In this document: positions 11,833-26,287 of the stretch, piece by piece | Layout of the letters: each line of letters starts with the position of its first letter | How positions within the stretch are numbered: the stretch's first letter is position 1 | Assembly: GCA_964597445.1 (NCBI GenBank) | Contig: CAZQXO010000004.1 | Location: 19,642 to 83,641 of the forward strand | Reading direction: 5' to 3' | DNA: 64,000 nucleotides | Origin: an uncultured Bifidobacteriaceae bacterium | Lineage (GTDB): Bacteria; Actinomycetota; Actinomycetes; S36-B12 | Made by a program: the position numbers and the translations under genes | Notes under the pieces: model-generated | Seen by the model: the letters and a program-made list of their open reading frames with translations, nothing else | What the model was told of the DNA's origin: nothing | Database searches by the model: none

Positions 11833-12111
11833 ATGCCATCGGATGACGATCTTCGCCGTGCCGCTGAGAAGAGACTGCGAGCCAAAGCGACCTTCTGGCG
11901 CACGGCCCTGCTGTTCGTGATCATTTGGGCCGTGCTGGTCGTGGTGTGGGCTGTGACCGGCGCTGGTTCCTTCTGGCCGATGTGGGCCATCCTCGGAATG
12001 GGCATCGCGCTGGCGTTCATGGCTTGGGGCACCTTCCGACCAGCCAGCGGTCCGACGTCTGAGCAGATCGACGCGGAAGTCCGGCGCATGAAGGGCGACG
12101 GTCAGGGCTGA
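11833..12111 (+). CDS. 2TM-domain small membrane protein
   Basis: 92-aa ORF with charged termini flanking two hydrophobic helices (FWRTALLFVIIWAVLVVVWAV, FWPMWAILGMGIALAFMAW). Confidence 0.6.
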   Translation: MPSDDDLRRAAEKRLRAKATFWRTALLFVIIWAVLVVVWAVTGAGSFWPMWAILGMGIALAFMAWGTFRPASGPTSEQIDAEVRRMKGDGQG

Positions 12112-12869
12112 GTCTCAGCTGCGCCCGGCTCGATCAGGTCGAGCAGGGCGACGACCGTGCGGGCACCCCATCCGTCCTCGTCGGTGAGCCCCAGGGGAAG
12201 GCCCGGGGCCACGTCGATGCGCTCGCGGGCGGCCATCCGAGCCGGGTCCGTCGAGGTGGTCGCGGCTGTCCACCAGTGACGGGCCCGGTGAGCAAGGCGG
12301 TCCGCGACGAGGGCACCTGCCCACTCGTCCGTCCCATCCAGGAGGCAGGGGGTGCGGCGAGACGACGCGCCGATGAGCATGCCGGCCACGGCGGCGATGG
12401 GGGGCGTTCCCATGGCATCGAGCAGTGCGACGTGGTCGCCGAGGGACGACCGCTGCTCCGCCATGAGATCGCGGACCCCTGCGCACGCCGCCATCCACTC
12501 GACATCGGCCATGCCGGCCGGCTGATGGGTCACGGCCGACGCATCGCGCTTGGTCAGCAGGCCGATGATGCCCCGCGCCTCGAGGAGGTGTCTCTCACCC
12601 ACGCGCGGGACGAGCAGCGTGATCCCGGAGTCGATAGCCCGGTCGGCGTAGGTCAGGCCGAGGAGCAGCGCATCCACGGCGGATGACCCCGTCGCCTCGA
12701 CGACGATCTCCCGCGCCACCGGCCGCGCCTCCCCGGCTCGCTGCCTCCACCACACGTCGAGGTCACCGAGGGACCCGGTGAGGTGGGGTCGGGGGCGGTC
12801 CGGTTCGTCGGCGGGGGAGGTGATGCGGGCTATCGCCTCGCTCAGGGCCTCGGGAAGGGGTGCGCTCAT
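12102..12869 (-). CDS. Truncated, degenerate CobT-family (DMB phosphoribosyltransferase-like) paralog, function unknown
   Basis: By-eye alignment to the adjacent CobT. SLGDLDVWW aligns with ALGRLEDAAIW, ITLLVPRVGERHLL with ADILIAGDMGIGNTT, IAAVAGMLIGA with IAAMAGYLAQA, LLDGTDEWAGALVA with VLDGIVSCSAALLA, and LGLTDEDGWGARTVVALLDLI with LDLRLGEGTGALMALPLLSAA. It is about 100 aa shorter. Last gene of the riboswitch operon. Confidence 0.6.
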   Translation of the reverse strand: MSAPLPEALSEAIARITSPADEPDRPRPHLTGSLGDLDVWWRQRAGEARPVAREIVVEATGSSAVDALLLGLTYADRAIDSGITLLVPRVGERHLLEARGIIGLLTKRDASAVTHQPAGMADVEWMAACAGVRDLMAEQRSSLGDHVALLDAMGTPPIAAVAGMLIGASSRRTPCLLDGTDEWAGALVADRLAHRARHWWTAATTSTDPARMAARERIDVAPGLPLGLTDEDGWGARTVVALLDLIEPGAAETQP

Positions 12870-12905: not shown

Positions 12906-13679
12906 TCACGTCATGACCAGCAGGACGAGGACTCCGGCGGTGGCGAGCTCACCTGTCGCGCCCAGGGTGTCGCCGGTGATGCCGCCCAGGCGACGTCGCG
13001 CGATGATGCTGAGCGCGACGCCGGCCACCAGGCCACCGGCGATGCTGACGGCGGTGCCGAGGGCGGCCGCCGGGCCGTGGGCGCGTCCGACGGACCCCGC
13101 GAACAGCAGCGCCCATCCGAGCACCGTGAGCCACGCAGCCCACGAGGGCACGGCACCGGCCACTGTCGCCCCAAGCCCGTCCGGGCGCGCGGCGGGGAAG
13201 GCCGGCGTGCAGGAGACCGTCATGGCCACTCGGCCGATCACCACGGCGATCACCACGGCTCCGGCTCCGGCCCCGCGGTCGAGAAGGTCACCGAGGGCGA
13301 TCACCTGGAGCAGCAGGACGAGGACGAGCGTCACGACGCCGAAGGGTCCGATGTCGGAGCGTCGGGCGATCTCCAGGGCGTGGGCTGCGGGTCGACCGCT
13401 GCCGAGGGCGTCGGCGGTGTCCGCGAGTCCGTCCAGGTGCAGGGCGCGCGTGAGCCAGGCGAGCACGCTGACCGTCAGCGCGGCAGCGAGCAGGCCGGGC
13501 GTGGACGTGGCGTTGACGAGGACCTGGGCCAGCACGCCGACGATGACGGTGGGGACGAGCATCACCACGGGCCCCAGCAGCATCGCCGCGCGCGCCTGTC
13601 TCCGGCCGACTGAGGAGGGCGCGGGGACGGGGATCCGCGTGAAGGTGCCGATCGCCAGGCGCCAGCCGTCAGTGCTCAC
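12906..13679 (-). CDS. cobS: Adenosylcobinamide-GDP ribazoletransferase (cobalamin 5'-phosphate synthase)
   Basis: Polytopic membrane protein with the motifs AIGTFTRIPVP and HLDGLADTADALGS. Confidence 0.9.
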   Translation of the reverse strand: MSTDGWRLAIGTFTRIPVPAPSSVGRRQARAAMLLGPVVMLVPTVIVGVLAQVLVNATSTPGLLAAALTVSVLAWLTRALHLDGLADTADALGSGRPAAHALEIARRSDIGPFGVVTLVLVLLLQVIALGDLLDRGAGAGAVVIAVVIGRVAMTVSCTPAFPAARPDGLGATVAGAVPSWAAWLTVLGWALLFAGSVGRAHGPAAALGTAVSIAGGLVAGVALSIIARRRLGGITGDTLGATGELATAGVLVLLVMT

Positions 13680-14739
13680 GATCCGTCACCCCCGCGCTCG
13701 CGAAGGTCGCCATCTCCGCGAGGGTGGTCGCGGCCGCCGAGAGGAGCGGGAGAGCCATCAGCGCCCCGGTGCCCTCACCGAGTCGCAGGTCGAGGTCCAG
13801 GAGCGGGGCGAGTCCGAGGGAGGCCAGGGCGATGCGCGCGGCGGGCTCCGTGGACACGTGGCCGCCGATCATCCAGGCGCGCGCTCCGGGGCGTACGGCA
13901 TCGGCGAGGAGTGCGGCGCTGCAGGAGACGATTCCGTCGAGGACCATCGGCATGCCGCGCGCGGCTGCCTGGGCGAGGTACCCCGCCATGGCTGCGATGT
14001 CCGGAGACCCGACGGTGGCGACCAGGCGGAGGGGGTCGGCCACCCAGGGGCGTCCCCGCTCCATCGCGGTGGCCACAGCGCGTTGCTTTCGCAGGAGCAC
14101 CTCGTCCGTGACACCCGTGCCGCGGCCGGTGACGTCCTCGGCGGACCGGTCGGTCAGCAGGCCGATGAGGGTCGCTGCCACGGTGGTGTTGCCGATGCCC
14201 ATGTCGCCGGCGATCAGGATGTCGGCTCCCGCATCGATGGCCTCGTCGGCCAGGTCGCGTCCGAGGCTCACGGCGGTCTCGGTCTCCTGCGGACTCATGG
14301 CGTCCTCGCGGTCGATGGATCCACTGCCGCGGCGCACGCGGCGCGCGGCGATGAGCGGATCACTGTCGTCGAGGTAGTGCGCATCGGCGTCGACGCTGAC
14401 ATCGATGACGCGCATGCGGGCGCCGAACTGGCGGGCCAGCACGTTCGCGGCGGCACCGCCGGTCGCGAAGTTGGCGACCATCTGTGCCGTCACCTCGGGA
14501 GGGTAGGCGGAGGTGCCGGCTTGGCGTGCGATGCCGTGGTCCCCGGCGAAGATCACGAGGTGCGGGGATCGGAACGGATGGGGTGGGCATTGACCCTGCA
14601 CCGACGCCATCCAGATGGCGGCATCCTCGAGTCGTCCCAGAGCGCCCAGCGGCTTGGTCAGTTGCGCCTGGCGTGCTCGGGCCGCGTCGGCGGCTGCGGA
14701 GGACGGAGTCGGGAGCCCACCTGCAGGGTGCGCGCGCAC
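13669..14739 (-). CDS. cobT: Nicotinate-nucleotide--dimethylbenzimidazole phosphoribosyltransferase
   Basis: GTG start at 14739. Motifs KPLGALGRLE, FAGDHG, GDMGIGNTT and LGEGTGA. 11-nt overlap with the cobS start. Confidence 0.93.
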   Translation of the reverse strand: MRAHPAGGLPTPSSAAADAARARQAQLTKPLGALGRLEDAAIWMASVQGQCPPHPFRSPHLVIFAGDHGIARQAGTSAYPPEVTAQMVANFATGGAAANVLARQFGARMRVIDVSVDADAHYLDDSDPLIAARRVRRGSGSIDREDAMSPQETETAVSLGRDLADEAIDAGADILIAGDMGIGNTTVAATLIGLLTDRSAEDVTGRGTGVTDEVLLRKQRAVATAMERGRPWVADPLRLVATVGSPDIAAMAGYLAQAAARGMPMVLDGIVSCSAALLADAVRPGARAWMIGGHVSTEPAARIALASLGLAPLLDLDLRLGEGTGALMALPLLSAAATTLAEMATFASAGVTDREH

Positions 14740-14740
14740 G

Positions 14741-16117
14741 TCAGCATCCCTCGGTCAGGTCGAGGGTGCGGCCGGCGACGACCAGGAGCGTCCGGTCGCA
14801 GGCATCCGCCATGGCGATGTTGGCGATGCCGAGCAGGTCGCGGAAGAGACGGCCGCTCGGCGTGGCAGGCACGACGCCCATGCCCACCTCGTTCGAGACG
14901 ACGATGACGTCACGGGGATGCCGCGTGACCGCCGTGCAGAGGTCATCGATGCGCAGGCGGGCCTCGGACAGCACGGCATCCCTGTCCCCGGACTCCCAGC
15001 GGTGCCAGGCGTCGATGTCGTCGAGTTGAGCCGTGAGCCACAGGGCAAGGCAGTCGATCAGGCACGGCCCTTCGGTGTTGGACAGAACGGAGACAACGTC
15101 AGTGCTCTCCACGGTCACCCACGTGGCCTGTCGTCGTGAGCGGTGCGCGGCCACGCGAACCTCCCACTCCGGATCGTCGGGGCGCGTGCCACCGGTGGCC
15201 ACGTAGGTGACGTCGGCGTGTGTGGCGAGCAGGGACTCCGCCTGGCGTGACTTGCCGGATCGTGCGCCGCCGAGGAGAAGGGTGTGGTGCGGTGCAGTCC
15301 CGCTGGTGTCGATCGTCATGAAGTCCTCCGGAAGCTCGATGCCGATCGCTGCGAGTCGCGGCCGGAGTTCCTCGGTCGGCGGATTGTGGTGGCTGAGGTG
15401 CGTGGCGAGGACCCGTGTCGCGTCGTTGATCGATCCGTGCTGGCGCAGCGCGTCGATCTGCGTGGGCAGGGTCGCGAGATCCAGGTGACCGGTCCCGTGG
15501 TCGAGCGTGTCGCCGAAGGTCGCGTCGATGAGCACGACATCGTGGGCGACCGCCGGCAGGTCCAGGGAAGCGGGGTCGAACGGGCCGGTGTCCGTCGCGT
15601 AGAGAAGGGTTCTACCGTCGATCGCGGTGAGGGAGTAGAGCACGGCGTCGGCAGCGTGGATGTCGCCGTTGCCGTGGTCATGTCGAGCCGTCACCACGCG
15701 CATCTGGACGTCGCCCTGAGAGGTGGTCAGGGTGATCTCGTCTCCAGCGCGAACGACGTGCAGCCGGTCCTGGTCCTGCGGTGCGCACCATTCGCGGCAG
15801 AGGTCGATCGCGGACGCCGGACCCCAGACATGGAGAGGACGCGTCTCCTCGACCCAGGATCGCGTGAGCAGGAATGCCGGATGGAGGTGATCCGGATGCC
15901 CGTGGGTGATGAGCACATGCTCGACCCGCGTGAGATCCATGCTGGCCGGCACGTGTGGAGTCGTCGGGCCGCAGTCGATGAGGATGACGTCGTCGACGAG
16001 CGCCGCGCTGGGACGGCGCGCCCGTCCGGCGCGTCGCTCGGTCCCGCACGACCGGCATGAGCAGAAGGGGTTGGGCCAGCCATCCGCTGAGCCTGTGCCG
16101 AGGAGGGTCACGCGCAT
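14741..16117 (-). CDS. cobU: Fusion protein: N-terminal PhnP-like MBL-fold metallohydrolase plus C-terminal adenosylcobinamide kinase/guanylyltransferase
   Basis: ORF 14741..16162 trimmed to ATG 16117 (MRVTLLGTGSADGWPNPFCSCRSCG). The N-terminal part carries the HxHxDH motif ITHGHPDHL. The C-terminal ~185 aa carry the P-loop LLLGGARSGKS and the CobU/CobP-type motif VVSNEVGMGVVP. Confidence 0.85.
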   Translation of the reverse strand: MRVTLLGTGSADGWPNPFCSCRSCGTERRAGRARRPSAALVDDVILIDCGPTTPHVPASMDLTRVEHVLITHGHPDHLHPAFLLTRSWVEETRPLHVWGPASAIDLCREWCAPQDQDRLHVVRAGDEITLTTSQGDVQMRVVTARHDHGNGDIHAADAVLYSLTAIDGRTLLYATDTGPFDPASLDLPAVAHDVVLIDATFGDTLDHGTGHLDLATLPTQIDALRQHGSINDATRVLATHLSHHNPPTEELRPRLAAIGIELPEDFMTIDTSGTAPHHTLLLGGARSGKSRQAESLLATHADVTYVATGGTRPDDPEWEVRVAAHRSRRQATWVTVESTDVVSVLSNTEGPCLIDCLALWLTAQLDDIDAWHRWESGDRDAVLSEARLRIDDLCTAVTRHPRDVIVVSNEVGMGVVPATPSGRLFRDLLGIANIAMADACDRTLLVVAGRTLDLTEGC

Positions 16118-16118
16118 G

Positions 16119-16967
16119 TCAGGACCCGGAGGGTGGGGCGGCCACGAACTCCGGTCGGGCATGGAACGCGGCCTTGCGTGCCATCCGGCGCAGGGCGAGC
16201 AGGATCGGACGTCCCGCCACCCAGATCAGGACGACCGTGAGCAGCGCTCGAGGGATGTCGTAGCCGAGTGATGTCACGAGGGAGAAGCGGATCCACGAGA
16301 GAAGGTTCTCCGGCATCGTCGCGCCCGCGGTGAAGGCGAGCTGCTCGGGAAGGGAGTCGAGGAAGGGCCAGAACCACAGGTTCATGAGAAAGCCGTAGGC
16401 GATGCAGGCGACCGCGGCGTAGATCGACAGGGCGAGGATCTCGCGACGCCCCGACCACCGCGACGGCAGGAGCCCGGCCCCCAGGCCGACCCACGCCGCC
16501 GCGAGCATCTGGAAGGGCAGCCAGGGTCCGACGCCACCGGTGAGCAGGGCCGACGCGAACAGGCCGATCGCCCCGAGGGCGAAGCCGAACCCGGGTCCGA
16601 GAGCGCGGGCGCCGAGAATGAGGATCACCCAGATCGGCTCCAGGCCGGCCGTGCCGCCACCGAGCGGTCGCAGCGCGGCGATGACGGCGCTGAGCACTCC
16701 CAGCATGGCGATCGCCTTCGCATCCATGCCGCCGTCACTCATCTGGGCGAGCACGACGATGAGCAGGACGGGAACGATGAGGGCGAAGAGGAGTGGTGCA
16801 TCCGTGGCGTGCGCGACGGCTGCGGACCCGGGCGCCGCGACGAGGGGCCAGATGAAGGCGACGAGGCCGATGGCCGACGCGACGCCGATCGCGATGCGTG
16901 ACGCGGGACCGAGTCGCACCGCGTGCGTGGTCACGGGGGTGGTGGAGGCCGGCAGGAGTGCTGTCAT
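16119..16967 (-). CDS. Putative ECF-transporter substrate-capture (S) component, unusually large (about 8 TM)
   Basis: 282-aa polytopic membrane protein directly after EcfT and EcfA1A2 with 4-nt and 1-nt junctions. The S-component assignment rests on context only. Confidence 0.55.
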   Translation of the reverse strand: MTALLPASTTPVTTHAVRLGPASRIAIGVASAIGLVAFIWPLVAAPGSAAVAHATDAPLLFALIVPVLLIVVLAQMSDGGMDAKAIAMLGVLSAVIAALRPLGGGTAGLEPIWVILILGARALGPGFGFALGAIGLFASALLTGGVGPWLPFQMLAAAWVGLGAGLLPSRWSGRREILALSIYAAVACIAYGFLMNLWFWPFLDSLPEQLAFTAGATMPENLLSWIRFSLVTSLGYDIPRALLTVVLIWVAGRPILLALRRMARKAAFHARPEFVAAPPSGS

Positions 16968-18586
16968 CCGACAGCCTCGGAATCCTGCAGCGCGTCTGCC
17001 ACCTGTTGGACCGTCAGCCAGGAGCCCGGAGCCAGGATCTTCGCGACCTGCGGTGCGAACATCGGGGACGCCGTCACCACGTGCGATGTCGGGCCGTCGG
17101 CCACGACCTCGCCGTCCGCCAGGATGATGACCCGGTCAGCGATCTCCGCCACGAGTTCGACGTCATGCGTCGCCAGCACGATGGTGTGTCCTGCGTCCGC
17201 AAGGTCGGCGAGGATGCCCGCAAGGCGTGCCTTCGTCGGATAGTCCAGCCCACGGGTGGGCTCATCGAGCAGGAGGAGCGGCGGACGCGCTGCGAGGATG
17301 ATGCAGAGGACGAGCAGCAGCCGCTGCCCCTCGGACAGGTCCCGAGGGTGAGCGCTGTCGACGATGTCGGGTGCCATGAGCGCGAGGAGCGCGCGGGTGG
17401 TGCCGAGATCCGCGCCCGCGTCACGGTCGGAGATCCGGCACTCCTCCGCAATCGTGGTGGCCTCCAGCAGGTCTGCCGGCTCCTGCGGCACGAGCCCGAC
17501 GGAGTGGAGCAGGCTCGCGCCGGTGAGTTCCCGGGGATCGGCCTCGCCGATCCGGACGGTGCCCGACGGGCGCGGGCCGACCCCCACGAGCGCGTGGAGC
17601 AGAGTGGACTTTCCCGCACCGTTGCGGCCCATCAGCGCCACGATCTCACCGGGATGTGCGGTCACGGACACATGGGAGAGCGCAGTAGCAGAGCCGTAGC
17701 GAACACTGACGTCGTCAGTGGTGACGAGCGGTGGGGCGGCGTCACGCACCGCACGCAGTCGCGGCTGCTGGCCGACGAGAAGATCGCGCAGGGATCCCGC
17801 GGCGCGCCGCGCATCGCGAACGGACAGGGGGAGAGGCTGCCACCCGGCCAGTCGGGCCAGTTCGACGACGGGAGGAGCGATCGGTGCCGTGCGCATCATC
17901 TCCGCCGGTGGGCCGAACGAGACCGGTCGCCCGTCGCCGGGGACGAGCAGCACCTGGTCGGCGTACTGCACGACCCGCTCGAGTCGGTGCTCGGCCATGA
18001 CGACGGTCACGCCCAGGTCATGCACCAGTCGCTGCAGCGCCGCGAGGACTTCCTCCGCGGCACCGGGGTCGAGGGCAGAGGTGGGCTCATCGAGCACTAG
18101 GACCCGCGGATGTGCTGCCAGCACCGCGCCGATCGCGACCCGCTGCCGCTGGCCCCCGGAGAGGGTGCGCAGTGCGCGCTGCCGGATGTCGGCAAGTCCG
18201 AGCAGGTCGAGAGTCTCCTCCACCCGTCGACGCATGACGTCCGGAGCAAGGCCGAGGCACTCCATCCCGTAGGCGAGCTCGTCCTCGACGGTGTCGGTCA
18301 CGAAGCTGCTCATCGGGTCCTGAGGCACGACCCCGACCAGGTCGGCCAGCTCCCGAGGTGGGTGGCTCGCGGTGTCGCGTCCATCGACGGTGATGCGCCC
18401 GGTCAGTGTGCCGCCGGTGAAATGGGGCACGAGTCCGTTCATCGCGCGCAGGAGAGTCGTCTTGCCGCTGCCCGTGCGTCCGACGACGAGCACGAGCTCG
18501 CCCTCGGGAATCCGCAGGCTCACGTGATCGAGCGTGGGTCGGACCTGACCGGGGTAGGTGATGCTGACGTCGTCGAACACGATCAT
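16964..18586 (-). CDS. ECF/ABC transporter ATPase with duplicated ATP-binding domains (EcfA1-A2 fusion, CbiO-like)
   Basis: ORF 16964..18832 trimmed to ATG 18586 (MIVFDDVSITY). Walker A GRTGSGKTT and GRNGAGKST, with signature motifs LSGGQRQR and LSEGQRLL. Confidence 0.9.
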   Translation of the reverse strand: MIVFDDVSITYPGQVRPTLDHVSLRIPEGELVLVVGRTGSGKTTLLRAMNGLVPHFTGGTLTGRITVDGRDTASHPPRELADLVGVVPQDPMSSFVTDTVEDELAYGMECLGLAPDVMRRRVEETLDLLGLADIRQRALRTLSGGQRQRVAIGAVLAAHPRVLVLDEPTSALDPGAAEEVLAALQRLVHDLGVTVVMAEHRLERVVQYADQVLLVPGDGRPVSFGPPAEMMRTAPIAPPVVELARLAGWQPLPLSVRDARRAAGSLRDLLVGQQPRLRAVRDAAPPLVTTDDVSVRYGSATALSHVSVTAHPGEIVALMGRNGAGKSTLLHALVGVGPRPSGTVRIGEADPRELTGASLLHSVGLVPQEPADLLEATTIAEECRISDRDAGADLGTTRALLALMAPDIVDSAHPRDLSEGQRLLLVLCIILAARPPLLLLDEPTRGLDYPTKARLAGILADLADAGHTIVLATHDVELVAEIADRVIILADGEVVADGPTSHVVTASPMFAPQVAKILAPGSWLTVQQVADALQDSEAVG

Positions 18587-19704
18587 GCGACCACCTCCGC
18601 GCGTTCCCTCGTCGGCTGCGTCGTGACCCGGCTCGCGAGGGGAAGGGGAGGGGACGTCCAGGCGGGTGTGAGTGCGACACCGAGGGCCAGCACGGCGACC
18701 CACGGCAGAGTGGGCCAGGCGGGAGGATCGACGGTGGCGTCCATGCCCGGCACGCCCAGCCACCCCGCGGCCGCGAACGCTGCTGCGGTCACCGCGCCGG
18801 CCCCGGCGACTGCCCACTCGGGTGCCCGCCACGGATCCGGTCGGTAGCGGGTGCGCACGCGGGTTCGCCCGGCGCGCAGCACCGCGACCATCGTGGTCAG
18901 CGTCCCGAGGGCCATCATCGGCAGTCCGAGGTACGCGGGGGAGTCGGGGGAGACGAGGCCGAACACGCCGATGCAGGAGGCGACGAGGCCCGTCAGGAGC
19001 ATGAGCGACGTCGTGCGCCGCTCGCGCACGGTGATGTCACCGCGTCGTCCGTAGCCGCGGGAGTCCATGGCTGCGGCGAGTGTCACGGATCGCTCGAGGG
19101 CGCCCTCGAGGACGGGGATGGCCGAGCCTGCCAGCGCGCGCATTCCCGTGCTGCTGCGTCCTCGCAGTCGACGAGCGGTGCGGAGCCGTTCGACGTCGGC
19201 GACGAGCTGCGGGGTGAAGGTCAGGGCGACGACCACGCTGACGCCCAGCTCGTACAGGGCTGCGGGCACCGACTTGAGCAGTCGGGTCGGCGATGCGAGC
19301 GAGTTCGCTGCTCCGACGCACACGAGGATCGTGGCGAGGCGCAGTCCGTCGTAGAAGGCCATCAGGAGTGATTCCGCCGTGACGCTGCCCCCGAGACGGA
19401 TCCCGGCGAGCCACGCGGGCAGGTCGACCCCGGGAAGGTCCACAACCGTGGTGGTGCCGACCGATGCTCCGAAGATCACTTGGACTGCAACGCGAATGAC
19501 GATGACGACGAGGCCGAGCTTGAGGAAGAAGCCGAACGAGCGACCCCAGGGCTCCTGCGGTCGTCGGGCCTGGACGACGAGGGCCGCGACCCCGATGAGG
19601 AGGACGAGGAGCAACGGGTTGGTCGTGCGGCTGGCAGCCGCGGCCATGCCCAGTGCCCAGACCCACCAGGCGCCCGGGTGCAGCCATCGAGCATCGCGGG
19701 TCAT
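18583..19704 (-). CDS. ECF transporter transmembrane (T) component (CbiQ/EcfT family) with extra C-terminal TM extension
   Basis: ORF 18583..19728, likely starting at ATG 19704 (MTRDARWLHPGAWW, ATGA overlap with the upstream stop). CbiQ-like core including ARRLRG/ALERS-type coupling helices, then about 100 extra residues with 2 TM helices. Confidence 0.8.
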   Translation of the reverse strand: MTRDARWLHPGAWWVWALGMAAAASRTTNPLLLVLLIGVAALVVQARRPQEPWGRSFGFFLKLGLVVIVIRVAVQVIFGASVGTTTVVDLPGVDLPAWLAGIRLGGSVTAESLLMAFYDGLRLATILVCVGAANSLASPTRLLKSVPAALYELGVSVVVALTFTPQLVADVERLRTARRLRGRSSTGMRALAGSAIPVLEGALERSVTLAAAMDSRGYGRRGDITVRERRTTSLMLLTGLVASCIGVFGLVSPDSPAYLGLPMMALGTLTTMVAVLRAGRTRVRTRYRPDPWRAPEWAVAGAGAVTAAAFAAAGWLGVPGMDATVDPPAWPTLPWVAVLALGVALTPAWTSPPLPLASRVTTQPTRERAEVVA

Positions 19705-20450
19705 GAGCGCCTCCGGCGACGGAGCCACACGTACTGGAGCGCGCCGATGGCGAGCACGAGGATCACGGCCAGTGACGCGACGGGGGATCCGGTCGACCCG
19801 GACACCTCACCCTCGGGTGCCTCGCCGCCGGTGCCGGCATTGAGAGCCGAGCCCGGGGTGTCGAGCAGGAGCCCGGGGGTGAGCGCATCGTCGGGTCCTG
19901 CGGCGGCCGCCGCGACGTCGGCGTCGTCGAGGATCGGTGCGCATTCTCGGGCGGGGTAGCCGCCCAGGCCGCACACGAGTCCGTTGTCCGTCCGCACCTC
20001 GAGGACGCTCCGGAGGACGTCGTAGGCGGTCGCGTCCGCTTCCGTCACGATGCACTCCGCACGCTGGTCGATCGGCGTCTCGCCGTCGGGGGCGATTCCC
20101 GGCGTGCCCGGGTCGATGATCAGGGCGATCCGCTTGGTGCCGTCGGTGGCTGCTACGCCACTGCACACGTCGGCGAAGTCGGGAGGCATGGACGGAGCGG
20201 CCTCTGCCGCACCCGAATCCGAGCTGATGGCGAAGCTCCAGCCCTCGACCGATCCGTCCTCGGGGACGGCCGTGGCGGGACCCTGCGTGGCGAAGGTCCA
20301 GTCCGTCTCTTCCGGACCGGCCTGCCAGTACGTCCAGAAGCGATACGCGGACGCCTCGGCGGGAGCGGCGAGGGCGGTCGCGAACGCACCGAGCAGCAGG
20401 ACCGACATGGCCGGCCCCGCTGCTCGGTGACTCACGCGCGTCCTCGCCAT
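19701..20450 (-). CDS. Exported, C-terminally membrane-anchored protein (SCO2322-family-like), function unknown
   Basis: Signal peptide (MSVLLLGAFATALAAPAEASA), a Trp/Tyr-rich module (YRFWTYWQAGPEETDWTFA...VEGWSFAI), a 4-Cys module, a low-complexity linker, a TM helix and an RRRRRS tail. The family name is from memory of annotations and was not searched. Confidence 0.6.
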   Translation of the reverse strand: MARTRVSHRAAGPAMSVLLLGAFATALAAPAEASAYRFWTYWQAGPEETDWTFATQGPATAVPEDGSVEGWSFAISSDSGAAEAAPSMPPDFADVCSGVAATDGTKRIALIIDPGTPGIAPDGETPIDQRAECIVTEADATAYDVLRSVLEVRTDNGLVCGLGGYPARECAPILDDADVAAAAAGPDDALTPGLLLDTPGSALNAGTGGEAPEGEVSGSTGSPVASLAVILVLAIGALQYVWLRRRRRS

Positions 20451-20454
20451 CGGA

Positions 20455-21510
20455 CTAGCGGCGCATCGAGGAGGACAGGGTCGTGACGAGGTTGACCCCG
20501 CCGAACGACGTGGGCCTCGCTCCGGTCGCCTCGGCGACCATCAGCAGCAGCCCTGCTGCCCCGGGGCTCCCGGACGCGTAGGTGCCCGCGTTGGCCTTCA
20601 GTGCCGCTGTTCCGCGTGCGATCGCAGCGCGACCCTCGCGGGCGAGGCTCAGGCCGAGGACGGCGTAGGCCGTCGAGGCGTAGTCCGGGCCGCCCATGGA
20701 TGAGTCCAGCACTCCTGACCTCGACAGGTTCGAGGCGAGGTAGCTGATCCCCTTCGCTCGAGCAGTGTTCGCGCAGGCCGCAGAGGCACCCGCGGCAGGC
20801 TGGCGGGTGACCGGCAGGGAGCCCGTGATCCCGAGGACGCCCTGCGACGTCGCGAGGCCGTCGGGCCGGCTGCCCGGCTGGTAGGCGAAGCCGCCGCCGC
20901 TGGCGCAGGAGGAGGCGGTGCTGCCCAGGAAGCGCATGGCCTCGCGGTAGGGCGACGATCCGAGATTGCCACCCCACGTGTTCGCGGCCGCGAGGGCGAG
21001 TCCGGTGGAGTTCGCGTCGGAGGCTCCCCCGGGGAAGTACGGCCAGCCGCCATCGGCGTTCTGCTGCTGACGGATCCATCGCCCCGCTGCCTCGGCGGCA
21101 TCCACGACCCTCGAGAGCTGTGCCGGCTTCAGGGTGATCCTGCTGTCATCGAGGGCCATGAGGGCCATCAGTGCCATGGCCGTGCTGTTGGTGTCGGGTC
21201 CGGTGTAGGTGGCGGGGTCCGGGGACGCGCACGGCTCCGACGTGGTGGGTCGGTAGTCCTCGAAGGATCCATCGGCGCACTGCTGGCGCAGCAGCCAGGA
21301 GACGGCGGCCGCAGGAGGGGTGATCTCGTGTGCGGTCAGGCCCAGGAGGCCGAGAGACTGGCGGAAGACCCCGTCGTATGTGGGGTCCGACGCCCCGTAG
21401 AGGCCGGCGTCGGGCGTGGCGGCCGCAGCCGTGCCGACTCCGGTGGACAGGGCTGCCGTGGCGCTGATGAGGGCGACGGCGGCGCGCCGGCGCACCAAGG
21501 TGCGAAGCAT
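20455..21510 (-). CDS. Exported prenyltransferase/squalene-oxidase-repeat (alpha-alpha toroid) protein
   Basis: RR-containing signal peptide (MLRTLVRRRAAVALISATAALSTGVGTAAAA). Repeats LRQQCADGSFEDY, IRQQQNADGGWPYFPG and ASGGGFAYQPG. First gene after the B12 riboswitch. Confidence 0.75.
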   Translation of the reverse strand: MLRTLVRRRAAVALISATAALSTGVGTAAAATPDAGLYGASDPTYDGVFRQSLGLLGLTAHEITPPAAAVSWLLRQQCADGSFEDYRPTTSEPCASPDPATYTGPDTNSTAMALMALMALDDSRITLKPAQLSRVVDAAEAAGRWIRQQQNADGGWPYFPGGASDANSTGLALAAANTWGGNLGSSPYREAMRFLGSTASSCASGGGFAYQPGSRPDGLATSQGVLGITGSLPVTRQPAAGASAACANTARAKGISYLASNLSRSGVLDSSMGGPDYASTAYAVLGLSLAREGRAAIARGTAALKANAGTYASGSPGAAGLLLMVAEATGARPTSFGGVNLVTTLSSSMRR

Positions 21511-21555: not shown

Positions 21556-21592
21556 TGAAAAGCGCGATCCCCGCAGCGCGGGCGCTGCGGGG
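21556..21592 (-). terminator. Intrinsic terminator forming the riboswitch expression platform
   Basis: The minus strand reads CCCCGCAGCGC-GG-GCGCTGCGGGG followed by ATCGCGCTTTTCAGG. It lies 45 nt upstream of the ATG at 21510, which has GAAAGG as SD. Confidence 0.7.
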
Positions 21593-21800
21593 AGCATGGG
21601 TCAGGACCCGAGCTCCCGTCCCGTTACCTCGACGGATGGAGCCGCTCGCGTTCGCCAGGTGCTCCGACTCTCCCCGGTTCAGGGCTGGGCCCTGACGTGG
21701 GAACACGGTTGCGGGACAGCGCCGGATTCGCACCGGACTTCCCCTGGACGTCGAACGAGTGGTGTTCAGTTGTGGGGGCATCCGACCACGGGGCGCATAC
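21556..21800 (-). promoter_or_regulatory. Cobalamin (B12) riboswitch, aptamer plus terminator
   Basis: The minus strand contains CAGGGGAAGTCCGGTGCGAATCCGGCGCTGTCCCGCAACCGTG, matching the conserved GGGAA..GGTG..AA.TCC..GCTG.CCCGCAAC.GT core. A B12-box-like GAGTCGGAGCACCTGGC sits at 21654-21671. The 5' boundary is approximate. Confidence 0.85.
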
Positions 21801-21830: not shown

Positions 21831-22037
21831 TCACCCCTCGGGATGGAGTCCCATGGGGCCGTAGACCTCCCGCTGCTCCTCGAGGAGCACGACCTGATGC
21901 ACCCCGGAGTCGAGGAGGTCCCTCCAGCTCTCGCCGATCCACGTCTCGGCGTCGGACTGCGAGGGGAAGGACTGAGAGCAGCCGGATCCCACCGGCGACC
22001 CGTCCGATGCCTCGAGGCGCCAGAACCACTGGCTCAT
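21831..22037 (-). CDS. Small conserved hypothetical protein (68 aa)
   Basis: MSQWFWRLEASDGSPVG...WIGESWRDLLDSGVHQVVLLEE. High GC3, and a 4-nt overlap with the stop of the upstream DUF3043 gene suggests translational coupling. Confidence 0.5.
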   Translation of the reverse strand: MSQWFWRLEASDGSPVGSGCSQSFPSQSDAETWIGESWRDLLDSGVHQVVLLEEQREVYGPMGLHPEG

Positions 22038-22639
22038 CGTCGTTCGACCGGTGCGCCGCCGCGCTTGACCTTGGGCGGCGGGATGCGAAGTCGGCGCAGC
22101 TGGAGCGTGCGCAGGATGGCGTAGAGGGTGATGCCCTTGCGCTCGGCCTTGTCGGGGAACTGCTTGGCGGCTCGACGGTTCAGCGTCACCAGCAGGATGA
22201 CGGTGTCGATCACGATCAGCGCGGTGAACGCGAAGAAGGCCAACGAGACGAAGGACTGCACGGCCGGGTTCTGGACGAATCCGAGCACGAGCACGGCGAT
22301 CGCGACGAAGATGAAGAACTCGGCGATCGTGAACCGCGAGTCGACGAAGTCCCGTGTGAAGGCTTTGGCGGGACCTTGGTCGCGCGGCGGAAGGTAGCGA
22401 TCGTCACCCGCCATCATGGCCGCGCGGGCCTTCGCGCGCTCGGCCCGATCCCGCTCACGAGCGGCCTTCTTGGCGGCCCGGGGGTCCTTGGGGATCTTCA
22501 GCTGCTGCTTGCGGGCTGCCTCAGCCTCCTTGCGGGACGGCGTCGGGCGGCCCTTCGGCGCACGCGGGTCCTCCAGGGAGGTGTCGTCCGCATTCGACGG
22601 GACGTCATCGGGGGCGGGGGGCTTCTGGCGTCCGAACAT
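22034..22639 (-). CDS. DUF3043-family membrane protein (Rv2206-like)
   Basis: Lys/Arg-rich N-terminal region, then two TM helices (FTIAEFFIFVAIAVLVLGF, SLAFFAFTALIVIDTVILLV). Synteny matches Rv2206. Confidence 0.8.
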   Translation of the reverse strand: MFGRQKPPAPDDVPSNADDTSLEDPRAPKGRPTPSRKEAEAARKQQLKIPKDPRAAKKAARERDRAERAKARAAMMAGDDRYLPPRDQGPAKAFTRDFVDSRFTIAEFFIFVAIAVLVLGFVQNPAVQSFVSLAFFAFTALIVIDTVILLVTLNRRAAKQFPDKAERKGITLYAILRTLQLRRLRIPPPKVKRGGAPVERR

Positions 22640-24958: not shown

Positions 24959-26149
24959 TCAGTCGCGAGCTGCGGTGGTTCCGGGAAGAGCGAGCATGCG
25001 ATCGAGCGCGACCTTCGCCCAGTGAGCAGTCTCCGGGTCGACGGTGATGCGGTTGGGAACCGCTCCCTCCACCAAGGACTCGAGGGCCCACACGAGGTGC
25101 GGCAGGTCGATCCGGTTCATCGTCGAGCAGTAGCAGACGGTCCGGTCCAGATAGACGATCTCCTTGTCGGGATGCTGCAGGGCGAGGCGCTTCACGAGAT
25201 TGAGCTCCGTGCCCACGGCCCACGCCGACCCCGGCTCCGCCTGCGCGATCGTCGCGATGATCTTCTCGGTCGATCCCACGACATCGGCCTTCTCGACGAC
25301 GTCGAACGAGCACTCGGGATGGACGATGACGGAGATGCCCGGAACGCGCTCCCGCACCTCGTCCACGCAGTCCGGGGTGAAGCGACCATGGACGGAGCAG
25401 TGGCCGCGCCACAGGATCATGCGCGCGCGGCGGATCTGCTCGTCGCTGAGCCCGCCTCGCGGCTTGAGCGGATTGAAGACGACGCAGTCCTCGAGGCTCA
25501 TGCCGAGGTCGCGGACAGCGGTGTTGCGGCCGAGGTGCTGGTCGGGCAGGAACAGCACTTTCTCCCCTCGCTCGAACGCCCAGGCCAGGCTGCGCTCCGC
25601 GTTGCTCGAGGTGCAGACGGCGCCACCGTGGCGTCCGGTGAAGGCCTTGATCGCCGCGGTCGAGTTCATGTATGTGATCGGGACGGTGGTGTCGGCCACG
25701 CCGACGTCCTCGAGGACCGCCCAGCAGTCCTCGACCTGGGAGATCGAGGCCATGTCGGCCATCGAGCAGCCCGCCGCGAGATCGGGAAGCACCACCTGCT
25801 GGTGCTCGGCGGTGAGGATGTCGGCGCTCTCCGCCATGAAGTGCACGCCCTCGAAGACGATGAACTCCGCCTCGGGGTGCGCGGCCGCCTGCTGTGCCAG
25901 CTTGAAGGAGTCCCCGGTGACGTCGGCGAAGGCGATGACCTCATCACGCTGGTAGTGGTGACCGAGGATGAACACCCGGTCACCGAGGGCCTCCTTGGCA
26001 CGACGTGCGCGCTCGACGAGGTCCGGGTCCGAGGGAGCGGGGAGGTCCCCCGGGCACACGACCCCGGCCTCGGTGTCCGGATCCGAGCCATGCCCCAGCA
26101 GCAGGAGCGCCAGTGGGGTCGGCTCGGGCTCGGTGAAGGAGGTCGCCAT
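24959..26149 (-). CDS. nadA: Quinolinate synthase
   Basis: ORF 24959..26179 trimmed to ATG 26149 (MATSFTEP). Motifs ILGHHYQRDEV, FIVFEGVHFMAESA, CSMADMA and CYCSTMNRI. Confidence 0.92.
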   Translation of the reverse strand: MATSFTEPEPTPLALLLLGHGSDPDTEAGVVCPGDLPAPSDPDLVERARRAKEALGDRVFILGHHYQRDEVIAFADVTGDSFKLAQQAAAHPEAEFIVFEGVHFMAESADILTAEHQQVVLPDLAAGCSMADMASISQVEDCWAVLEDVGVADTTVPITYMNSTAAIKAFTGRHGGAVCTSSNAERSLAWAFERGEKVLFLPDQHLGRNTAVRDLGMSLEDCVVFNPLKPRGGLSDEQIRRARMILWRGHCSVHGRFTPDCVDEVRERVPGISVIVHPECSFDVVEKADVVGSTEKIIATIAQAEPGSAWAVGTELNLVKRLALQHPDKEIVYLDRTVCYCSTMNRIDLPHLVWALESLVEGAVPNRITVDPETAHWAKVALDRMLALPGTTAARD

Positions 26150-26287
26150 GCCCTCAGTTTCCCATGGCGCAGCCAGCATGCTCGCGCGCGCTCCTCAGGC
26201 ATGTGACAATCTGGGAATACGTCTCTTCGCCTCAGCGTTGGCGCGAGGGCGACGTCCGCATCAGGAATCGATCCGAGAGGCATCACC

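Follow-up and report, generated by a model that had tools for sequence, protein, structure and literature searches.

A conserved exported companion of a B12-regulated ECF transporter in Actinomycetota: the SCO2322 family and its optional toroid neighbor

Transporters of the energy-coupling factor (ECF) type are taught as importers that work without extracytoplasmic binding proteins. The DNA analyzed here, called the window below, is a stretch of 64,000 nucleotides from an uncultured Bifidobacteriaceae bacterium (contig CAZQXO010000004.1, positions 19,642 to 83,641). Its minus strand carries an operon in which the genes of an ECF transporter stand behind a B12 riboswitch and two genes for exported proteins, a 351-residue protein of alpha/alpha-toroid fold and a 249-residue member of the SCO2322 family. 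The initial annotation of this DNA had proposed that these two proteins form a split corrinoid receptor resembling transcobalamin. We found SCO2322 to be the transporter's constant companion and the toroid protein to be optional. SCO2322 is probably a helper of the ECF transporter on the outside of the cell.

Several described systems resemble this arrangement in part. In transcobalamin (TC), intrinsic factor (IF) and haptocorrin (HC) (PF01122 + PF14478; PDB 2bb5, 2pmv, 4kki), an extracellular alpha6/alpha6 toroid and a small beta-rich module linked to B12 uptake belong to a single chain. CbiN and NikN, of the CbiMNQO and NikMNQO metal-ion importers, are small subunits with two transmembrane (TM) segments and a short loop that are needed for substrate loading. 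CbrT is said to work without any extracytoplasmic accessory protein. ECF-CbrT of Lactobacillus delbrueckii is a characterized ECF-type importer of B12 and cobinamide (PMC5997447). Burroughs and colleagues (2007) defined the SLBB beta-grasp domain of TC and predicted that Gram-positive surface proteins combining a toroid with SLBB bind B12 (PMC1796856). In L. sakei, Verplaetse and colleagues described an ECF operon, Lsa1836-1840, with separate exported TC-alpha-like (Lsa1840) and TC-beta-like (Lsa1839) proteins; the pair was proposed to scavenge heme and feed the S (substrate-specific) component, and HHpred matched the small partner to the beta domain of TC/haptocorrin (10.1101/864751). Given these two precedents, a split TC-like pair beside an ECF transporter is not new in kind. 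Finally, Kang and colleagues reported that genomes of acI, a lineage said to be the most abundant among freshwater Actinobacteria, lack B12 synthesis and have an ECF module behind Cbl/AdoCbl riboswitches that is a putative B12 transporter; the SCO2322 gene is not discussed in that paper (PMC5301498). Our literature searches returned nothing relevant on SCO2320-SCO2325 or the SCO2322 family, and no description of an SCO2322-type ECF accessory.

We scanned a genome collection holding one genome per species, which gave at least 571 matching stretches, and analyzed the best 80 loci. Save for a few contigs of metagenome-assembled genomes labeled otherwise, these loci carry the label Actinomycetota; they take in Streptomyces, Nanopelagicales including Planktophila and Nanopelagicus (acI), Terrabacter and Micrococcales. 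The gene order SCO2322, ecfT, ecfAA, ecfS was kept in 78 of the 79 loci with downstream sequence. The exception (locus L050, 5539-7764) has a riboswitch, a toroid gene and an SCO2322 gene, followed by a gene for a PfkB-like kinase on the opposite strand. Riboswitches of the cobalamin clan (CL00101) were sought at the Rfam gathering score in 29 loci from Streptomyces, Nanopelagicales, Terrabacter and Micrococcales, and one (RF01482, RF01689 or RF00174) was present at the operon head in 26 of them, showing that homologs of these genes generally do occur under such riboswitches. The link to corrinoid uptake made by the initial annotation is borne out by these counts, together with the CobU, CobT and CobS genes of the window.

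Of 77 loci that could be assessed, 51 have the toroid gene immediately upstream of SCO2322. It is absent there in the other 26, among them loci of acI bacteria that depend on imported B12 (PMC5301498), and a two-part clamp as first proposed therefore cannot be obligatory. In toroid-less loci L025, L026, L029, L040, L049, L057, L063 and L066, the riboswitch immediately precedes SCO2322. The SCO2322 family itself is large, with 433 clusters at 50% identity (E <= 1e-30) in a representative library of 1.84 billion proteins.

The operons fall into four architectures that differ in the lengths and membrane anchors of their products. Streptomyces loci encode an anchored toroid protein of ~405-428 aa, an anchored SCO2322 protein and an EcfT protein of ~370 aa. 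Loci of the window type encode an anchorless toroid protein of ~350 aa, an anchored SCO2322 protein and an EcfT of ~380 aa, often with a gene for a metallo-beta-lactamase (MBL)-CobU fusion downstream. Terrabacter and others have no adjacent toroid gene and an anchored SCO2322 protein. The acI loci also have no adjacent toroid gene; their SCO2322 protein, of ~180 aa, is without an anchor, and their EcfT is ~258 aa long. These loci (L026, L029, L040 and others) share with the window the order riboswitch, SCO2322, ecfT, ecfAA, ecfS, so that the acI ECF module and the window transporter probably belong to the same transporter family, whereas the missing toroid gene, the missing anchor and the short EcfT set the acI version apart.

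Two further observations concern the pairing of these proteins. EcfT is ~258 aa long where SCO2322 is anchorless (acI loci L026, L029, L040, L043, L056, L060, L063, L070, L071 and L074) and 365-390 aa long, with an extra C-terminal membrane segment, in loci with an anchored SCO2322. This covariation may mark a contact between EcfT and SCO2322. L050 is the only locus of the 80 with a stand-alone pair of toroid and SCO2322 genes and no adjacent ECF genes. One apparent toroid-SCO2322 fusion (P0442, 730 aa) is probably a frameshift or a merged gene call, to judge by the SCO2322 signal peptide that it retains internally, behind an Arg-rich stretch; no other fusions were present among the best 150 representatives.

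In the window, the operon and its leader comprise the following features.

21649..21757, minus strand: AdoCbl-II riboswitch aptamer at the operon head (Rfam RF01689, 40.4 bits against a gathering score of 36.5, E 3.4e-06, full model 1-81)
21569..21592, minus strand: perfect 10-bp GC-rich hairpin CCCCGCAGCG-CCCG-CGCTGCGGGG located past the aptamer and before the first start codon, TTTT following after 7 nt (read by eye)
20455..21510, minus strand: exported alpha/alpha-toroid protein, 351 aa (Pfam Prenyltrans, SQHop_cyclase_N)
19701..20450, minus strand: SCO2322-family protein, 249 aa (NCBIfam NF040672, PF28005)
18583..19704, minus strand: EcfT, CbiQ family, extended at its C terminus by ~150 aa (Pfam CbiQ 1e-08, residues 23-228)
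16964..18586, minus strand: fused EcfA-A' ATPase with two ATP-binding cassette (ABC) domains (ABC_tran twice, 5e-56; TIGR04520 and TIGR04521, ~1e-85)
16119..16967, minus strand: ECF S component, the substrate-specific subunit (Pfam ECF_trnsprt 4e-09)
14741..16117, minus strand: MBL-fold domain fused to CobU, adenosylcobinamide kinase/guanylyltransferase (Pfam CobU 1.6e-47, Lactamase_B_2 1.2e-18)
13669..14739, minus strand: CobT, dimethylbenzimidazole phosphoribosyltransferase (Pfam DBI_PRT 6e-123)
12906..13679, minus strand: CobS, cobalamin-5'-phosphate synthase (Pfam CobS 1.5e-41)
12102..12869, minus strand: second, partial DBI_PRT-like open reading frame (ORF) (Pfam DBI_PRT 1.7e-26, profile positions 132-312 only)

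The initial annotation had placed the toroid gene first behind a B12 riboswitch, and the RF01689 match confirms this: the aptamer lies on the same strand as the operon genes, 139 nt upstream of the toroid gene. The leader hairpin is possibly a terminator-type expression platform; consensus terminator and promoter scans of the leader made no call, including at the hairpin. The two-gene unit proposed initially is real as a pair, but it is not free-standing, as it belongs to a ten-gene corrinoid uptake and salvage operon. As read from the sequence, 4 nt separate the toroid and SCO2322 genes, ATGA start/stop overlaps join SCO2322 to ecfT, ecfT to ecfA and ecfA to ecfS, and the MBL-CobU gene starts 1 nt past the ecfS stop codon. 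The longest ORFs of EcfT, EcfA-A' and MBL-CobU begin further upstream, at 19728, 18832 and 16162, respectively; the probable start of EcfA-A' is the ATG that overlaps the ecfT stop codon. These junctions indicate translational coupling of the toroid and SCO2322 genes to the ECF genes.

The T protein, the A/A' ATPases and the S component are encoded together, as in dedicated (group I) ECF transporters. A sequence search of the PDB with the S component was empty. Since this protein has no characterized relative, we infer the substrate from the riboswitch and the Cob genes. ECF-CbrT is likewise an ECF-type ABC importer for corrinoids; in contrast, the S component of the window has no detectable similarity to any PDB chain and its EcfT carries the long C-terminal extension. 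A transporter of cobalt, heme or another tetrapyrrole, with accessory proteins serving that substrate, could be imagined, because B12 riboswitches also control cobalt transporters and the TC-like/ECF system of L. sakei was reported to act in heme uptake (10.1101/864751). However, the S component is a generic ECF_trnsprt protein, the Pfam scan reported no match to CbiM or CbiN in those operon genes that it covered, and the operon holds genes of cobinamide salvage. In addition, cobalt import under B12 control would be of no use to acI bacteria, which are unable to synthesize B12 (PMC5301498). Such a substrate is therefore very unlikely. The operon most likely serves corrinoid uptake and salvage, repressed through the B12 riboswitch and organized around a dedicated ECF transporter with CobU, CobT and CobS, and we hold with high confidence that it combines a corrinoid importer with a salvage unit.

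The 249-aa protein was assigned to its family by the NCBIfam model SCO2322_fam (NF040672), which it matches with 155.2 bits (cutoff 85) over profile positions 1-140 of 144; PF28005 is present in the precomputed annotation of all 61 relatives. The features on which the initial annotation was based are all there: both minus-strand ORFs (21510..20455, 351 aa, and 20450..19701, 249 aa) are present, both proteins have export signals, and the translations contain the motifs quoted. In the 249-aa protein these are YRFWTYWQ, DWTFA, VEGWSFAI, four Cys, a C-terminal hydrophobic helix and an RRRRRS tail. The protein consists of a signal peptide, a Trp/Tyr-rich ectodomain of ~140 aa (residues 35-175) with the four Cys, a disordered linker, a C-terminal TM helix and the Arg tail. 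AlphaFold2 predicted its core (residues ~35-175) with a local confidence score (pLDDT) above 95, as six main strands with short helices, followed by the disordered linker and the C-terminal helix. In the family alignment, W39, W51, C96, C133, C160 and C170 are invariant, and Y36, R37, Y41, W42, D65, W71, F73, K106, R107 and Y165 are nearly so. The ectodomain is probably stabilized by disulfides. A Foldseek comparison of the model with the PDB gave no match (best E 0.5), and sequence and profile searches of the PDB returned chance antibody matches only.

At the C terminus (window 19701-19790, minus strand), close relatives share the motif G-[ST]-P-[VL]-A-[TS] ahead of the TM helix and the Arg tail. 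A few family members match LPXTG, PEP-CTERM or MYXO-CTERM sorting-signal models weakly. As the motif fades in distant members, its role as a sorting signal is doubtful.

The initial annotation had seen in this protein a counterpart of the TC beta domain or of DUF4430. We found no such relation by Pfam, PDB profile search, Foldseek or hhalign. Neither DUF4430 (PF14478) nor Cobalamin_bind was matched in Pfam by 59 native SCO2322 members, even at E 10, or by 35 permuted members. The PDB contains stand-alone TC-beta chains (5no0 and related entries), yet Foldseek retrieved no TC beta domain. By hhalign, SCO2322 against TC-beta/DUF4430 profiles gave P ~0.05-0.15, in a test of low power in which the true homologs bacterial DUF4430 and TC beta reach only 57%.

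A circularly permuted relationship was also considered. Permuted sequences and a permuted alignment were run against Pfam and PDB profiles, and hhalign comparisons with TC-beta and bacterial DUF4430 profiles were made at 36 cut points. When the hairpin formed by residues 35-76 is moved to the C-terminal end, the predicted order of elements becomes beta-beta-alpha-beta-beta-beta-beta, which is the DUF4430 order of the TC beta-domain structure. Furthermore, the SCO2322 motif YRYWTYWQ...GPA..P.DGSVEGW.F resembles the C-terminal DUF4430 motif, its part YWQ...GPA..P.DG.VEGW lining up with FWQ...GIADYRPKDGETIE of TC over 70-74 columns, although not significantly. In permuted form the aligned span extends to up to 74 columns, almost the whole beta domain; however, the score (~16.5, P ~0.046) equals that of the native order in what is a weak test, and the search of PDB profiles with the permuted alignment was empty. 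SCO2322 is without detectable homology to TC; that it is a permuted beta-grasp domain, a circularly permuted relative of the TC beta domain, is put forward as an idea.

DUF4430 genes also came to light elsewhere. In a Blautia (Lachnospiraceae) locus (L081, 7001-7942), a DUF4430 gene (3u7z-like) precedes the gene for a 171-aa protein without a family match, and no riboswitch lies upstream. Thus, not every DUF4430 gene is part of a B12-regulated operon.

The translation of the 351-aa protein contains the quoted motifs QQCADGSFEDY, QQQNADGGWPYFPG and SGGGFAYQPG, and it matches Prenyltrans (2.2e-08) and SQHop_cyclase_N (3.4e-06) in Pfam, both above the gathering score. Its AlphaFold2 model, built on an alignment of 53 sequences, is an alpha/alpha toroid (pLDDT 89.5; predicted TM-score, pTM, 0.87) preceded by a disordered signal region of 31 residues. 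The best Foldseek neighbors in the PDB are squalene-hopene cyclase (SHC), drimenyl-diphosphate synthase, the beta subunits of farnesyl- and geranylgeranyltransferases, and the thioester-containing domain of complement C4, at E 1e-5 to 1e-3 and TM-scores of ~0.5. On this evidence the protein could be a working cyclase, a prenyltransferase or another toroid-fold enzyme of the cell surface whose place in the operon is incidental. Its export signal argues against a cytosolic prenyltransferase role, and the window operon has no gene for the alpha subunit with which beta subunits of protein prenyltransferases, whose Zn2+ ligands are Asp, Cys and His, are paired. Class II terpene cyclases have two fused beta-gamma toroids of ~600 aa and lie in the cytoplasm or at the membrane face; here, there is a single toroid of ~320 aa behind a signal peptide, and the TM-score with a terpene cyclase, normalized to the target, is only 0.29. 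In addition, PDVDDTA of SHC aligns with PDTNSTA of the toroid protein, so that D-T-N-S occupies the position of the catalytic DxDD. Asn108 in this site is invariant in 53 of 53 homologs, and the next residue is Ser, Ala or Gln. Finally, the gene stands directly behind the B12 riboswitch in loci that carry it. The acid of class II cyclases is lost, the toroid protein is likely non-enzymatic, and the possibility of an enzyme with an incidental location is highly improbable. The initial annotation, which took the protein for an alpha/alpha toroid rather than an isoprenoid enzyme, is supported in both respects.

Its comparison with the TC alpha domain specifically found no support. Cobalamin_bind (PF01122) was not matched in Pfam, hhalign gave a probability of 5% against a profile of human, mouse and bovine TC, and no TC, IF or HC chain was present among the best 50 Foldseek matches listed. 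An N-terminal RR is found in 30 of 53 toroid homologs, and RR followed by any residue and two hydrophobic ones in 20 of 53, so that export by the twin-arginine translocation (Tat) pathway is possible. The window protein matches the NCBIfam equivalog model SCO2321_fam (NF053823) with 218.4 bits, below the cutoff of 300, over profile positions 8-352 of 405. It also has no C-terminal TM helix, whereas Streptomyces members have such an anchor. By these sequence measures, the window toroid represents a related subfamily and is not the SCO2321 equivalog.

These results bear on the notion of a true split transcobalamin, in which the toroid protein would be homologous to TC alpha, SCO2322 would be a divergent and possibly circularly permuted SLBB/DUF4430 beta-grasp, and a corrinoid would be clamped between them as in TC, IF and HC. 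The fold class of the toroid, the DUF4430-like element order of permuted SCO2322, the motif alignment and the precedents in L. sakei (10.1101/864751) and in the Gram-positive predictions (PMC1796856) all fit. Against it, none of the SCO2322 alignments is significant, the native and permuted scores are equal in a test whose positive control reaches 57%, the domain and PDB profile searches were empty, Foldseek found no TC beta domain, hhalign gives the toroid only 5% against TC, and the toroid gene is missing beside SCO2322 in a third of the assessable loci (26/77). We consider this explanation improbable. The differences from TC, IF and HC are that the window proteins are separate, that they leave those sequence families unmatched, and that the SCO2322 fold has no Foldseek match. 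The L. sakei system is closer, with an ECF module (S, A-A', T), two exported accessory proteins of which one is an alpha/alpha toroid, and a proposed role in catching a tetrapyrrole outside the cell on behalf of the S component. It differs from ours in that its small partner is TC-beta-like, while here it belongs to the unrelated-looking SCO2322 family; in that heme is the claimed substrate, while here the riboswitch with CobU, CobT and CobS indicates corrinoids; and in that it belongs to Firmicutes rather than Actinomycetota, where the toroid is optional. Of the split receptor first proposed, export, the toroid fold and the corrinoid link are thus upheld, but not the relationship to TC or the obligatory pairing.

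On balance, SCO2322 is probably a ligand-handling extracytoplasmic accessory of the ECF corrinoid importer, its ligand binding being suggested by gene context. The best reading of the toroid protein is that of an optional second extracytoplasmic accessory, which may contact SCO2322. In this scheme, the operon would be expressed when B12 is scarce. SCO2322, tethered to the membrane and synthesized in parallel with EcfT, would capture scarce cobalamin or cobinamide outside the cell, acting as the substrate-capture protein normally missing from ECF transporters; alternatively, it would dock on the S and T components to load the corrinoid. The toroid protein, as a catalytically dead binding module, would provide a second binding surface, assisting in some lineages and being dispensable in others. 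In Streptomyces its own anchor would keep it at the cell, and in loci of the window type presumably a protein contact would. The corrinoid would then be handed over to the S component and imported by it with the ECF module, and CobU, CobT and CobS would complete or remodel it. More specifically, SCO2322 might represent a previously unrecognized corrinoid-binding fold that serves the transporter as its substrate-capture protein, a proposal that we make tentatively.

Several observations weigh against this interpretation. SCO2322 resembles no known corrinoid binder by PDB profile search or Foldseek, so it is the context of the gene that points to a binder. The family alignment reveals no conserved residue, be it His or free Cys, that could serve as a cobalt ligand, and no ligand-contacting residues can be named. 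The S component, as noted above, has no characterized relative. In acI, SCO2322 has no membrane anchor, and a freely secreted binder would be lost unless docked on the transporter, an arrangement that agrees equally with a structural or gating role and with capture.

The main rival explanation follows from the last point. SCO2322 might be a structural or gating subunit of the ECF transporter, comparable to CbiN, that acts in assembly, stability or loading of the S component and captures no free corrinoid, with the toroid as a separate surface binder. The ATGA overlap of SCO2322 and ecfT, the near-universal synteny of the two genes and the covariation of EcfT length with the SCO2322 anchor (~258 aa with the anchorless acI protein, 365-390 aa with anchored ones) are arguments for it, as is the need of the anchorless acI protein to dock somewhere to stay at the cell. 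Like CbiN and NikN, SCO2322 is an extra membrane-attached component encoded with ECF genes, but it differs from them in its folded ectodomain of ~140 aa and its lone C-terminal TM helix. This aromatic-rich domain is big for a protein that serves assembly alone, and L050 encodes the toroid-SCO2322 pair away from ECF genes. We regard a purely structural or gating role as rather unlikely.

Some features of the salvage genes and of the neighborhood were also noted. The MBL half of the MBL-CobU protein, encoded directly 3' of the S-component gene, is PhnP/RNase Z-like, and the fusion also occurs at loci L001, L002, L005-L007, L010, L013, L015, L036 and L059. A CobC-type phosphatase is missing from the window operon beside its CobU, CobT and CobS; as an idea only, the MBL half might supply this step. 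The DBI_PRT-like ORF 3' of CobS matches the CobT profile over no more than the profile's C-terminal 60%. Either a truncated paralog or an accessory protein may be encoded here, and from the position of the ORF it may be the last gene of the operon. The order NadA-like gene, DUF3043 gene, B12 ECF operon is common to the window (22034-22639 and 24959-26179, minus strand) and to a Nanopelagicaceae (acI) locus (L026, 3933-5665), a hint that the window stems from an actinomycete lineage related to acI.

What is new here is that the constant helper belongs to a different, uncharacterized family, whose predicted fold has no neighbor in the PDB. SCO2322 and the B12 riboswitch are jointly conserved throughout the phylum, and the B12-auxotrophic acI bacteria have kept SCO2322 alone. 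A conserved exported protein that travels with a B12-regulated ECF module contrasts with the picture of ECF transporters as they are taught. Known corrinoid-binding modules include BtuF, BtuG, BtuH and TC/IF/HC, and if SCO2322 binds corrinoids, a new module would join this short list. The uncharacterized families NF040672/PF28005 and NF053823 gain a concrete candidate role. Corrinoid binding by SCO2322 would explain how Gram-positive actinobacteria, including antibiotic-producing Streptomyces and B12-auxotrophic acI plankton, capture scarce B12, and as a capture protein SCO2322 would be key to B12 acquisition in both groups.

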